Positions 11,473-16,679 of a stretch of DNA of 64,000 nt are shown piece after piece. The stretch spans positions 192,001-256,000 of the forward strand of contig CAWVVV010000001.1 in assembly GCA_963933835.1 (NCBI GenBank), given 5' to 3'. The stretch's first letter is position 1. Each line of letters starts with the position of its first letter. The notes beneath the pieces are model-generated. The model was not told the origin of the DNA, did no database searches, and worked only from the letters and a program-made list of their open reading frames with translations. The translations under genes were made by a program, and so were the position numbers. The stretch is from an uncultured Puniceicoccaceae bacterium. GTDB lineage: Bacteria > Verrucomicrobiota > Verrucomicrobiia > Opitutales > Oceanipulchritudinaceae.

Positions 11473-12006
11473 CTAGCGCAACCCACCTTGTTGAAAAATC
11501 GTCGCAATAGGCAGGAAGAGCGCAATCACGATGGTCCCGACGATTACGGCAAGAAGGACGATCATGATGGGCTCAATCATGGCGGTCAGGCCGGAGACAG
11601 CTGTATCCAGTTCTTCCTCATAGGTATCAGCGATGCGCTCGCACATTTCACCGAGCTGACCCGTTTCTTCCCCTACCTCGACCATACTCGGAACAAAGGC
11701 GGGGAACACTCCGGAGCGCTCTAGCGGGCGGGCCAAGGTATCACCATCTTTGACTCGCTCACGGACGTCATCGAGCGCCCGTTGAACAACCGTCTGCCCG
11801 ACGACATCTCGCGATATTTGAAGCGCATCCAGAAGAGGCACCCCACTTTCGAAAAGCGTTCCAAAGGTGCGAGCAAAACGGCTCACGGCGAGTCGCTGGG
11901 AAAGTCCTTTGGCCAGCGGTAGACTAAAGACCAAGCGATCCCAAAGCTCCTTGCCGACTTTACTCCGAAGAAAGGACTGACCGCCGACAATCAACGCGAC
12001 TAAACT
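11473..12006 (-). pseudogene. C-terminal fragment of a type II secretion F / PilC-family protein
   Basis: SRFARTFGTLFESGVPLL, MVEVGEETGQL and IEPIMIV...ALFLPI. Only the second T2SSF domain is present. An in-frame TAG lies at 12007-12009 and the fragment abuts the rluA-family gene. Confidence 0.85.
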
Positions 12007-13309: not shown

Positions 13310-14544
13310 ATGTTTTTACAAAATCCCCTCCCTGCCTTCCTGCGTCTTATGACCTCTTCCCAGGGTGTCGTCCTTGCAAGCATCTGCTTGCTCCCATGCC
13401 TGCTCAACGCGCAGTTCACGACGGCAAGCAACGCAACTGGGCTCACGATCACTAGTTACACCGCTGGGGGTGCTAACGTCGTCATCCCAGCCACAATCAA
13501 CGGGCAGGCGGTGACGGGAATCGGAGGAGACGCCTTCCGGGAGAATTTAAATATTACGAGCGTTACCATTCCCAATTCAGTCACTTCTATTGGGGTCCAA
13601 GCCTTTTTATTCTGCAGCAATCTTGGCAGTGTCACGATTGGTAATAGCGTCGAATCAATCGGCAGTGCGGCGTTTTTAGGCTGCACCAGCCTGAATAATG
13701 CAGTGCTTCAAATAGCCTAATAACGATCGGCGACCTCGCTTTCCGTGAGTGTTCCAGCCTAACGAGTATCGTCATACCAAACAGCGTTACGACAATGGGA
13801 GATCAAGTATTCTCCACGTGTAGTAATCTCGCCACCGTAGTTATCGGTGATAAGGTCGAAAGCATTGGCGAGTTTGCTTTTCATAGCTGTGTCAACATGA
13901 GCTCGGTCACCTTCGGCAGCAGCATCACAAGTATCGGTAAACTTGATTTCTTCGACTGCGATTCACTCACTGTCGTAGCGCTCCCAGATAGTGTCACCTC
14001 GATCGGTGAAAGCGCATTCAATGACTGCTCGAACCTCATCAATATCTCGACGGGTGAAAGTTTGGTCGATGTCGGTGATGCTGCCTTCAATCTTTGCACC
14101 CAACTTCAAACCGTCACATTTCCCGCCACCCTTGAGACGATCGGTGAATCTGCTTTCGCCTTCTGCGTGAATCTCGATAAAATTTATGCCGCCGGTAACG
14201 CTCCCGCTTTCAACGAATTCAACACCTTTGCTGGAGCGGAAGCCGCAACCGTCTACTACTTCGCCGACACGAGCGGCTGGGGACCACTCCTCGGCACCCT
14301 ATCGACGGAAGTGCTCCCAGAAATCGTCACCACCGATGGCAACTTCGGAGTGAGCAACAATGAGTTTGGCTTTACCGTTGTCGGGGATGCAGGACAGGAA
14401 GCAATCGTCCAAGTGAGCACAGACTTTGTCTCCACGAGCTGGGTCGAAGCAGGTCGGATCGTTTTAACGAATGGCTCCGGTTTCTTCGTTGATGCCAACT
14501 GGACCGCGCTGTCTGGCCGCTACTACCGCATTGTCTGGCCTTAA
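13310..14544 (+). pseudogene. BspA-type leucine-rich-repeat (LRR_5) surface protein split by a frameshift
   Basis: Repeats of xTIPNSVTSIGxxAFxxCxxL in both ORFs. Adding one C near 13709 restores VLPNSLITIGDLAFRECSSLTSIVIPNSVTTMG and joins them. Confidence 0.85.
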
Positions 14545-14570: not shown

Positions 14571-15704
14571 TCAGCTAGAAGGCGTCTCATCGTCCTCTTC
14601 CCCAACATACATGCAGTCGCGATATTCATCAGCTGAATAGGCAGACTGTCCCCAGTGCCATGTATCCAAGTCATACCAATGCTCTGCGCCAATTGTCATA
14701 TCGAGGATATCGCCGGCCTTTAAGTCGATTTGCTCTGTGCGTAAGACACGATAGCCCCAATGGGGTGCTCGCCCCGAATCGATGGGACTCGTTGAGAGGA
14801 CGAGGTCCTCATCAACGATCGCTTTGAAATATACGGCATAGCCATCCATTCGGCCCGCTTTCACGACCGCTGAAGCTAGGCTCATTTCGAGCGGCAGCTC
14901 ATTCTCACGCAGCGTATGTAGATCGAAGCTGAGGAGTGGGACAGGATCGCAGAGAAAGTGCTCAATGAGAGACTGATCCGTCTCGGGAAACACGTAGTAG
15001 CCAGCATCTTGTGCCTGCTTATCTTTGAGCGGACTAAAATCGAAACCCTCGACGTTGAGCTCCCAGATATAGGGGACGACTCGGCTATCCCTAATTTGAA
15101 TCGGCTCACAGTAGAGCTCGAACCGGGCGGGTAAGATTCGACCACCCTCTTTGAGCAAGCGGTCGCGAAGATCCGTGACATTCGCCACCATATCCTCGTC
15201 AAAAAGGATGTCTCCCATCTGCTCGTGAAGGATGACGTCGACCCGCTCATCGAGCTTGAAGTCCTTACTGTGAATGTCGTGAAACTGAACCCCTTCGATA
15301 CCATTGTGCGCAGCGAGGGCTCTCGCGTGCTCGATGATATCAGAGTGATCTAGGGCGTGGATCTGCGATGCCTTTTGCCACGAAGCGAAGGCGGAGAGAA
15401 TACCTGTGCCCGTCCCCAGATCGATCACCCTGTCACCCTCATGAATGTGCCTCCGAATCATCTCCCGGTAGAAATTCATCCGCGGTTTATCCGCTAGCAT
15501 CTGCTCCTGCTCACCAAACTGAGCAAAGACCCGCTTATTGTTCTCCGGATAGGGGTCTTTCTTTTTCGGAAGCTCTAAGAGGTCTTCCTCTTCGATATAG
15601 GCTCGGCGCTTCTTGGCCTTAAAGCCTTTCTTCTTTTCCCGAGCAAAGCCATCGGCCGCATTGGCCGAGTTTTTATCAGACTTCTTTTTAGATGAGTGCG
15701 CCAT
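14571..15704 (-). CDS. Protein arginine methyltransferase (PRMT)-like SAM-dependent methyltransferase
   Basis: QMLADKPRMNFY, VIDLGTGTGILSAFA, VDVILHEQMGDILFDEDM (double-E loop), LLKEGGRILP, NVEGFDFSPL and LSTSP...PHW. Confidence 0.82.
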   Translation of the reverse strand: MAHSSKKKSDKNSANAADGFAREKKKGFKAKKRRAYIEEEDLLELPKKKDPYPENNKRVFAQFGEQEQMLADKPRMNFYREMIRRHIHEGDRVIDLGTGTGILSAFASWQKASQIHALDHSDIIEHARALAAHNGIEGVQFHDIHSKDFKLDERVDVILHEQMGDILFDEDMVANVTDLRDRLLKEGGRILPARFELYCEPIQIRDSRVVPYIWELNVEGFDFSPLKDKQAQDAGYYVFPETDQSLIEHFLCDPVPLLSFDLHTLRENELPLEMSLASAVVKAGRMDGYAVYFKAIVDEDLVLSTSPIDSGRAPHWGYRVLRTEQIDLKAGDILDMTIGAEHWYDLDTWHWGQSAYSADEYRDCMYVGEEDDETPSS

Positions 15705-15731
15705 GGATAAGGGTCTAAGTAATCGTATGAA

Positions 15732-16679
15732 TTAATTCACTACGTTCAGGACAGCTTCAATCTCGCTGCGCTTGGGCGCAGATAGTTGAGCACCGGGAAC
15801 CGTCACCGAGTGGGCGGCAGCAGCATTCGCAAAGCGGACGGCATCTTTCAAATCGCTTCCCTCCGCTAGGGCAACCGCGAGAGCCCCATTGAACACATCC
15901 CCTGCTGCCACTGTATCGACGGCGGCGACTGCAAATGCAGGGACTAGATAGCATCCATCAGCCTGCGACACGAAAGCCCCTTGATCACCAAGGGTAAGAA
16001 CGATCGTCTCGACGCCACGCTTTCGCAGGGCGGACGCAGCACGCTCGGCATCATCGACACTCTTAATAGCAATGCCTGTCAGCAGCTCCGCTTCGGTCTC
16101 GTTGGGGGTCAGGATCGAAACCATTCTCATCAACGAATCTGGGAGCGACTGGGCAGGCGCTGGGTTCAGGATAAGACGGACATTCTTCTCTCTCGCGAGT
16201 TCAGCAGCCGCCACAACGGTCTCTAGCGGCACCTCAAGCTGGAGAAGTAAAACGGAAGCCGTTTCAAACGCAGCAGCCGATGCGACCACATCGTCGGGTG
16301 AGAGCTGAGCATTCGCGCCGGACGCAACCCCGATTGAGTTTTCTCCCGTCTCTGCGACAAAGATCAGCCCGACACCTGTCGGTGTTTTAGAATCACGGAC
16401 AACAAATGATGTATCGATGTCGTCGGCCTTAAATCCTTCGAAGATTTCGTCACCATGGTGATCGGCTCCGAGACGCCCAACGAAAGTCAAATCCGCTCCA
16501 GCGCGCGCCGCCGCCACAGCTTGATTCGCACCCTTACCACCTGGACAGGTCAAGAATTCACCGCCTAAAATCGTCTCACCAACCTTCGGAATACGCTCGA
16601 GATAGATCGTCATATCCATTCCGGAACTCCCCACGACAAGGACCTTTGGTCTAGCTCCGTCAGAATGGCTCATGGGCAA
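15732..16679 (-). CDS. rbsK: Ribokinase
   Basis: PGGKGANQAVAAAR, LNPAPA, TPNETEA and DTVAAGDVFNG. Confidence 0.93.
   Translation of the reverse strand: MPMSHSDGARPKVLVVGSSGMDMTIYLERIPKVGETILGGEFLTCPGGKGANQAVAAARAGADLTFVGRLGADHHGDEIFEGFKADDIDTSFVVRDSKTPTGVGLIFVAETGENSIGVASGANAQLSPDDVVASAAAFETASVLLLQLEVPLETVVAAAELAREKNVRLILNPAPAQSLPDSLMRMVSILTPNETEAELLTGIAIKSVDDAERAASALRKRGVETIVLTLGDQGAFVSQADGCYLVPAFAVAAVDTVAAGDVFNGALAVALAEGSDLKDAVRFANAAAAHSVTVPGAQLSAPKRSEIEAVLNVVN

Follow-up and report, generated by a model that had tools for sequence, protein, structure and literature searches.

The window analysed here is a stretch of 64,000 nucleotides from the genome of an uncultured Puniceicoccaceae bacterium (GenBank assembly GCA_963933835.1, contig CAWVVV010000001.1, positions 192,001 to 256,000 of the forward strand), and it carries on the minus strand, at 14571-15704, a single uninterrupted open reading frame (ORF), P0001, of 377 amino acids plus stop. 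Judged from its sequence, the product is a protein arginine methyltransferase (PRMT) family enzyme with the full architecture of that family, neither a generic S-adenosylmethionine (SAM) methyltransferase nor PrmA. By analogy with solved PRMTs, it is probably active in the cytoplasm as a homodimer that transfers methyl groups from SAM to arginine (guanidino-N) in the bacterium's own proteins. To our knowledge, PRMTs and the methylation of protein arginine that they carry out are usually regarded as eukaryotic. On the evidence of its homologues, the gene is one more member of a widespread, sparsely distributed prokaryotic PRMT subfamily. An earlier note on this DNA, made from the letters alone, had described an intact ORF whose motifs follow PRMT1-type enzymes in order. 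The intact frame is confirmed, and the order is fully borne out, from the basic N-terminal tail, N-terminal helix, motif I and double-E loop to LLKEGGRILP, the dimerisation arm, PHW and the acidic C-terminus. The parts of the gene and its product are as follows.

14571..15704, minus strand: complete PRMT-family ORF P0001, 377 amino acids plus stop; a single copy in this genome.
15570..15704, minus strand: Lys/Arg-rich tail followed by an acidic patch, residues 1-45; predicted to be disordered, lineage-specific.
15447..15551, minus strand: N-terminal helices over the SAM pocket, residues 52-86, with M69, D72, R75 and Y79; model helices 52-61, 63-71 and 73-86.
Residues 66-79: N-terminal helix motif, aligned with the EML-D--R segment of PRMT2.
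15132..15446, minus strand: Rossmann SAM-binding domain, residues 87-191, with Pfam methyltransferase matches.
15402-15428, minus strand: motif I, VIDLGTGTG, residues 93-101; D95, G97, G99 and G101 conserved.
15189..15233, minus strand: double-E loop, residues 158-172; E161 and E170 face both Glu residues of PRMT2.
Residues 183-192: LLKEGGRILP.
14634..15131, minus strand: PRMT beta-barrel domain, residues 192-357, recognised from PRMT_C, the model strands and Foldseek.
14994..15092, minus strand: dimerisation arm inserted in the barrel, residues 205-237; predicted homodimer contacts.
Residues 214-226: arm segment WELNVEGFDFSPL.
14757..14765, minus strand: PHW, counterpart of the THW loop, residues 314-316; aligned with the HW of the PRMT2 loop.
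14574..14633, minus strand: C-terminal helix and acidic tail, residues 358-377; model helix 358-365.

The family assignment is evident from sequence comparison. A phmmer search against all PDB chains gave 63 distinct sequences at E<=0.01, and the best 60 of the 63, which were inspected, are all named arginine methyltransferases save one that bears only a clone name. The top match is PRMT2 (E 4.4e-25, residues 67-337), and further matches over residues of about 60-339 include PRMT1, PRMT8, PRMT6, PRMT3, CARM1 and PRMT7, down to E 1e-16. The PRMT2 alignment pairs E161, E170, the helix M-L-x-D-x-x-R (M69, D72, R75) and H315-W316 with their PRMT2 counterparts. Pfam PRMT_C (PF22528), the oligomerisation or beta-barrel subdomain, covers residues 197-338 with 32.7 bits against a cut-off of 27, and this model has no match in any of 14 well-known prokaryote genomes used as controls. 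Generic class I methyltransferase domains of Pfam (Methyltransf_31/25, PrmA-like) lie on residues 83-195, and NCBIfam gave sub-threshold matches only. Together with the predicted fold and dimer described below, these searches uphold the view of the earlier note that the protein is of PRMT type beyond a generic SAM motif.

The residues expected to do the chemistry are well kept. Across 137 homologues P192 is invariant, and D72, R75, Y79, D95, G97, G99, G101, E161, G164, E170 and W316 are at least 90% conserved; in a 49-sequence alignment M69, D72, R75 and Y79 are invariant. H315 is kept throughout the Opitutales clade and is Ser or Asn in distant homologues. The C-terminal segment with the acidic tail is shared by P0001-P0016, the nearest clade, and is missing from the Opitutaceae copies in the alignment. 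Since the catalytic residues are conserved across homologues, the catalytic apparatus appears to be under constraint. The earlier note had argued for selection from an ORF that stayed intact while its neighbours broke; the data fit purifying selection, which this residue conservation supports better than the state of the neighbouring genes.

The double-E signature of eukaryotic type I enzymes is S-E-W-M-G, and that of the window protein is H-E-Q-M-G. Met stands at both type I-determinant positions, M69 and the M163 of H-E-Q-M-G, and each faces a Met of PRMT2, though M163 is replaced by Ile in some distant homologues. We take M48 and M155 of PRMT1 to be the type I determinants that favour asymmetric dimethylation, with M69 and M163 as their counterparts. 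Because Met69 and Met163 occupy positions favouring asymmetric dimethylation, mono- and asymmetric dimethyl-arginine would be the likeliest products.

The predicted structure agrees with this assignment. An AlphaFold2 model built on the 137-sequence alignment has a mean predicted local distance difference test (pLDDT) score of 89.5 and a predicted template modelling score of 0.83, while prediction from the single sequence reached a pLDDT of only 31. In the model, residues 1-45 are disordered (pLDDT below 50 at residues 1-23 and 25-28) and are followed by three N-terminal helices, the Rossmann domain and the beta-barrel. The top PDB matches listed by Foldseek are all PRMTs, with PRMT2 first (E 1.2e-26) and then PRMT6, PRMT3, T. 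brucei PRMT7 and PRMT1; among these listed matches E ranges from 1e-26 to 7e-23 over 313-356 columns, with target TM-scores of 0.70-0.81 and identities of 22-27%. The earlier note would have abandoned its reading if the PRMT beta-barrel were lacking, and the barrel is present in the predicted fold according to both Foldseek and PRMT_C.

A homodimer was also predicted, from two copies of residues 46-377 in three runs with three controls, and it scored 0.78 against 0.01 for the best of the three controls. Of 30 proteins whose solved structure is a one-chain pair, 20 reach the mark used to judge such scores, as does 1 of 23 whose solved structure is a single chain; these counts are only rough here because a custom alignment was used. 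The runs agreed in at least 55% of contacts, with a partner pLDDT of at least 86. In the predicted interface, the arm (207-232) of one copy touches residues 62-80, 100-106 and 122-134, belonging to the N-terminal and Rossmann helices, of the other, and this modelled contact is the canonical head-to-tail, arm-to-Rossmann arrangement of PRMTs. Because PRMT dimers have already been solved, the result may reflect likeness to them rather than constitute proof.

If the protein works like the solved PRMTs, the Rossmann domain would bind SAM beneath the N-terminal helices, E161 and E170 would grip and polarise the guanidinium of the substrate arginine, and the H315-W316 loop would close the pocket. 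The arm of one subunit would pack on the Rossmann domain of the other, giving the ring-shaped dimer that PRMT activity requires.

Homologues of the protein are numerous among prokaryotes. A word-indexed search screened 4411 candidates and found 857 at E<=0.001; the identity of the 119 best to the query, itself not counted, is 53-82%, and the named ones among them come from Puniceicoccales, Oceanipulchritudo, Opitutaceae, Opitutus and Horticoccus. Many of these 119 are labelled 'protein arginine N-methyltransferase 1' by JGI. An exhaustive search of 50%-identity cluster representatives pointed to thousands of metagenomic relatives: 6528 passed E<=0.001, 3240 passed E<=1e-10 and 123 passed E<=1e-30. 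The double-E loop has the form H/Q-E-Q-M/I-G in nearly all of the top 150 representatives; the S-E-W/C/L form, which is closer to the S-E-W-M-G of eukaryotic type I enzymes, appears in only a few, near the bottom of that list. A search for named relatives with a 49-row alignment gave 601 pattern matches, of which 150 were confirmed; the 80 best of these, at 79 loci, were kept and extend the subfamily to Verrucomicrobiota, Actinomycetota, Planctomycetota, Chloroflexota, Bacteroidota, Myxococcota and archaea. The Oceanipulchritudo copy is 64% identical to the query, and the Opitutaceae copies, together with metagenome-assembled genomes (MAGs) labelled Akkermansiaceae, Luteolibacter or Verrucomicrobiales, are 50-59% identical. 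Carriers from other phyla include Planctomycetota, Anaerolineales, Dehalococcoidaceae, Ignavibacteria, Litoribacter, Balneolaceae, Ilumatobacter and other Actinomycetota, Archangium, Sandaracinaceae and alphaproteobacterial MAGs, as well as Algibacter pectinivorans of the Flavobacteriaceae; archaeal carriers are Methanoculleus nereidis (42%), an Aenigmatarchaeota MAG and a Bathyarchaeota MAG. The other-phylum copies are 34-45% identical to the query, compared with 22-27% for the eukaryotic PRMT structures. The label 'eukaryote-like' in the earlier note, taken to mean unusual or derived from eukaryotes, thus does not hold for a member of this large prokaryotic subfamily.

Within the order the gene is patchily distributed. 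An orthologue was found in 15 of 401 Opitutales genomes; with the own genome excluded, it occurs in 5 of 34 genomes of the own family (Oceanipulchritudo included), in 9 of 33 Opitutaceae and in none of 333 across 39 other families. A phylum-wide sample gave 11 of 401 genomes, nine of them Opitutaceae and one with a distant match of 28% identity. When one genome per genus was taken from the Opitutaceae, 7 of 46 had an orthologue at least 49% identical and three more had only a relative of 29-33%. One Opitutaceae genome (G753) has two orthologue copies (contig 6: 168750-169655 and contig 4: 323784-324695), 55% and 52% identical to the query.

A phylogeny of the bacterial homologues, which the earlier note had proposed, was made as a quick maximum-likelihood tree of 80 prokaryotic rows, with no eukaryotic sequence included. 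The rows are the query and 79 of 89 candidate loci; the other ten were left off for a match of less than 240 query residues or a stop inside. All Verrucomicrobial copies fall in one clade of 53 rows, with a Shimodaira-Hasegawa-like approximate likelihood ratio test (SH-aLRT) support of 100, joined by a single MAG labelled Pseudomonadales. The query adjoins Oceanipulchritudo and a member of its own family (G288), the Opitutaceae copies form one clade with 98% support, and the copies of other phyla are interleaved. Such a topology is consistent with a single old acquisition in Opitutales and many later losses, plus transfers among prokaryotes, and suggests that the gene is vertically held in the marine Opitutales lineage. 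A recent capture from a eukaryote, which was also considered, does not fit the tree pattern. The Pseudomonadales-labelled copy (L091), 51% identical and at the base of the Verrucomicrobial clade, reflects either a transfer or a mis-binned contig.

Several longer relatives were also seen. P0123-P0128 have N-terminal parts without Pfam matches, as does a 927-amino-acid open frame in an Opitutaceae genome (L028:6386-9169, G289), and there are one NUDIX-PRMT form (P0139) and one NTP_transf_5-PRMT form (P0168). Long open frames in G+C-rich DNA may be spurious, and none of these longer or fused relatives bears on the window copy.

With regard to substrates, the earlier note had seen none in the window, and this is correct; candidates with Arg-Gly-Gly (RGG) repeats or glycine- and arginine-rich (GAR) segments lie elsewhere in the genome, which comprises 1.94 Mb in 10 contigs, is estimated to be 97% complete and has the PRMT-family gene as a single copy. 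All of its ORFs were scanned for RG-rich windows, and the three top matches are real genes. The first encodes ribosomal protein uS5 (268 amino acids, contig 2: 375897-376703, L031:1398-2201), just upstream of the L15 gene; its S5 domains occupy residues 120-266 and are preceded by an N-terminal extension of about 115 residues with RGG and RG-P-G repeats and 24 RG/GR dipeptides. The second and third encode a DEAD-box helicase of 454 amino acids (contig 6: 67468-68832, L032) and an RRM protein of 180 amino acids (contig 6: 95318-95860, L033), each ending in a long C-terminal GAR tail. Weaker segments rich in Arg and Gly occur in PNPase and Rho. Half of the matches to a double-RGG DNA pattern in this genome, 11 of 22, fall in the uS5, helicase and RRM genes. 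On the strength of these sequences, GAR proteins are plausible as the leading candidate substrates, and the GAR tails of uS5, the helicase and the RRM protein would be the first to consider.

Several observations weigh against the reading of the protein as a methyltransferase of the bacterium's own proteins, and of these GAR proteins in particular. The Thr of the THW loop is replaced here by P314. Among the 63 flanking ORFs at 13 related loci there is no recurring neighbour of the gene, and because the neighbourhoods differ across all 13, genomic context yields no partner. In the own family, the uS5 extensions have 24, 25, 23, 6, 2 and 6 RG/GR dipeptides in six carriers and 2-23, several of them 16-23, in 21 non-carriers (one more non-carrier yielded no extension, and two loci lying at the end of a contig were left out), and no association between the GAR extension of uS5 and the PRMT-family gene is seen there. 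In Opitutaceae, where 30 of 42 matched genomes were read, RG motifs lie upstream of the S5 core in 6 of 6 carriers versus 13 of 22 non-carriers, a weak trend that ignores kinship. Across 37 family genomes, the counts of the double-RGG DNA pattern follow G+C content and genome size, and are about twice those of a reversed-pattern control in carriers and non-carriers alike. Since GAR extensions also occur in genomes without the gene, the comparative evidence does not tie these candidates to the enzyme. Our literature search, which did not cover most subscription journals, found no experimental study of this prokaryotic subfamily and none in which a bacterial enzyme of the PRMT family modifies bacterial proteins. 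Among bacterial methyltransferases of the arginine guanidino group, it gave a named substrate only for SznE/StzE of streptozotocin biosynthesis, which is reported to methylate free L-arginine (PMC11705231).

This last enzyme is the ground for the main rival explanation, in which the substrate is not a protein but free L-arginine, a different small compound with a guanidino group or a short peptide. SznE/StzE is reported to make N-omega-methyl-L-arginine from free arginine (PMC11705231), and a double-E pocket recognises guanidinium whatever its carrier. On the other hand, there is no biosynthetic cluster around the window gene, whose neighbours are pstCAB-phoU, a PfkB kinase and a split leucine-rich repeat (LRR) gene, no partner is conserved at any of the 13 related loci, and the full beta-barrel, the arm and the predicted dimer are all retained. 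We regard a small-molecule or peptide substrate as less likely and consider that the enzyme would probably act on protein arginine.

Whose proteins would be methylated is another question, as the earlier note had left room for a host-directed enzyme with a tail like a nuclear localisation signal. Under such an explanation, the protein would be a secreted nucleomodulin whose Lys-rich tail directs it to the nucleus, where it methylates host histones or RGG proteins. The basic tail does resemble a classical nuclear localisation signal, the genome is small at 1.94 Mb, and secreted bacterial methyltransferases that target host chromatin exist: one review lists Rv1988 of M. tuberculosis as a secreted enzyme that methylates arginine of host histone H3, and gives the function of the PRMTs predicted in Legionella pneumophila as unknown (PMC10117894). 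However, the Lys-rich tail (a basic stretch at residues 24-34, with 14 K/R in the first 47 residues) is found only in P0001 and in P0002-P0004, which are 75-82% identical; these are 4 in all among the 60 closest homologues that were inspected. A different, conserved Arg-rich N-terminal segment of about 45 residues is present in most of the 60, and three start just before the catalytic core. The catalytic core is common to many apparently free-living lineages in several phyla and archaea, and the window DNA was found in marine or seawater metagenomes (14 rows from seven studies, three rows being possibly the source of the assembly). No secretion-related gene context was seen, the nearby T2SSF ORF being a single-domain fragment, and no secretion-signal prediction was made. 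Because the tail, predicted to be disordered, is limited to the four closest sequences and the DNA occurs in seawater metagenomes, the host-effector interpretation is unsupported, and we judge it very improbable. Endogenous use is favoured because the Verrucomicrobial copies form one clade and the DNA is present in marine metagenomes. As to the Arg-rich segment, it was seen in most Opitutales homologues from P0007 to P0120, and in the window protein the Lys-rich disordered tail stands in its place.

The surroundings of the gene in the window are mixed. The PRMT-family gene starts 27 bases downstream of a gene for a PfkB-family sugar kinase on the same strand (15732-16679), which is preceded in turn by pstC, pstA, pstB and phoU in this order. 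Downstream and convergent lies a BspA-type LRR gene in two frames, 13310-13720 and 13795-14544 on the plus strand, both of which match LRR_5. Its frameshift lies near 13700-13722, and the repeat of the second frame extends upstream of the ATG of that frame. The statement of the earlier note that neighbouring genes are broken is thus right for this gene as it stands in the assembly; the sequence suggests either a pseudogene or an assembly error. The split gene has a signal-peptide-like start. Farther away, an ORF for protein F of the type II secretion system (11473-11994, minus strand, 173 amino acids, a single T2SSF domain) abuts an RluA-type pseudouridine synthase gene and, from its sequence, looks truncated. 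A scan for promoters and terminators around the PRMT-family gene gave nothing relevant above shuffled expectation. At single related loci, and without recurrence, there are RNA-related neighbours: DeaD (G002), RsgA with a MiaB/RimO-type enzyme (G257), CvfB (G289) and a DTW protein (G045).

Such broken neighbours, together with the patchy distribution of the gene in 15 of 401 Opitutales genomes with many apparent losses, might make one think of a gene that is decaying, or has lost its catalytic activity, in a streamlined genome. This is hardly to be expected of an intact frame that keeps every catalytic motif and is 75-82% identical to its nearest relatives. Four marine metatranscriptome runs from a single study give a weak hint in the same direction: they contain short contigs (156-168 bases) that match the ORF at 99% identity or more and map to 14597-14753, 15102-15255 and 15580-15735 of the window. 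These contigs indicate presence in RNA libraries rather than transcription, and the hint is weak because DNA can occur in such libraries; the stretches of the ORF without a contig are uninformative.

The least probable explanation, to which we give practically no weight, is the PrmA that lysine-methylates ribosomal protein L11: NCBI names the homologues P0018 and P0160 '50S ribosomal protein L11 methyltransferase', and Pfam PrmA matches residues 83-168 (E 6.5e-8), but the C-terminal half is a PRMT beta-barrel, which is missing from PrmA, and TIGR00406 (prmA) reaches only 35.1 bits against a cut-off of 183.15, on the Rossmann part alone (model positions 156-239). Because of this low score and because a separate prmA-like gene with a much better score (138 bits) lies on contig 2 of the genome, the 'L11 methyltransferase' label is wrong for the window protein. 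The comparison by profiles and structure that the earlier note had suggested between PRMTs and PrmA thus comes down on the PRMT side, with PRMT_C above its cut-off and prmA far below.

Returning to the methylation of the bacterium's own proteins, we may go one step further, tentatively and with more doubt than confidence. Some free-living bacteria might have an endogenous PRMT-RGG system, in which a type I-like PRMT acts on the GAR tails of uS5, a helicase and an RRM protein and tunes ribosome assembly or RNA binding. The PRMT3/RPS2 and PRMT1/RGG pairings would then have a prokaryotic counterpart or precursor, and the lineage-specific Lys-rich head and acidic tail might aid docking of the enzyme, both on RNA or ribosomes and on GAR substrates, which are basic. 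That one small genome combines a complete PRMT of type I-like kind with three proteins that are strongly GAR-rich and associated with RNA or the ribosome makes the idea concrete and testable, and a cultured relative (a Puniceicoccales/Oceanipulchritudo strain) carries an orthologue, P0011, which is 62% identical. If protein substrates were confirmed, the PRMT-RGG axis would not be a eukaryotic invention.

Finally, the window protein can be set beside the systems already known. It shares with SznE/StzE the bacterial SAM-dependent methylation of an arginine guanidino nitrogen, if our reading is right, but SznE/StzE uses free L-arginine and belongs to a biosynthetic cluster, and there is no such cluster at the window gene; this comparison is by reaction and context, not by sequence. 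With PrmA it shares a related class I Rossmann fold and weak Pfam and TIGRFAM matches, whereas PrmA methylates lysine, binds L11 through an N-terminal domain and lacks a beta-barrel. The eukaryotic type I PRMTs (PRMT1/2/3/6/8 and CARM1) resemble it in domain order (N-terminal helices, then the Rossmann domain, then the beta-barrel with its inserted arm), in both double-E Glu residues, in the two Met residues at the type I positions, in the HW of THW and in the predicted head-to-tail dimer. It differs from them in an identity of only 22-27%, in H-E-Q-M-G instead of S-E-W-M-G and PHW instead of THW, and in the lack of an SH3, zinc-finger or PH targeting domain, in place of which it has the disordered Lys-rich N-tail and the acidic C-tail; moreover, the window gene belongs to a prokaryotic clade. 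In eukaryotes, PRMT3 methylates the N-terminal RGG repeats of uS5 (RPS2). The uS5 of the window genome has its GAR/RGG extension at the same N-terminal place, although GAR-extended uS5 is common in Opitutales without the gene and the window enzyme has no zinc finger of the PRMT3 type. Counterparts in the public databases include the prokaryotic PRMT-like proteins of Algibacter pectinivorans (WP_092852418), Puniceicoccales bacterium CK1056, Litoribacter ruber, Archangium gephyra and Methanoculleus nereidis, which belong to the same subfamily, are about 330-380 amino acids long and 34-64% identical, and share the H/Q-E-Q-M/I-G signature, while the Lys-rich N-tail is peculiar to the window copy and three metagenomic relatives.

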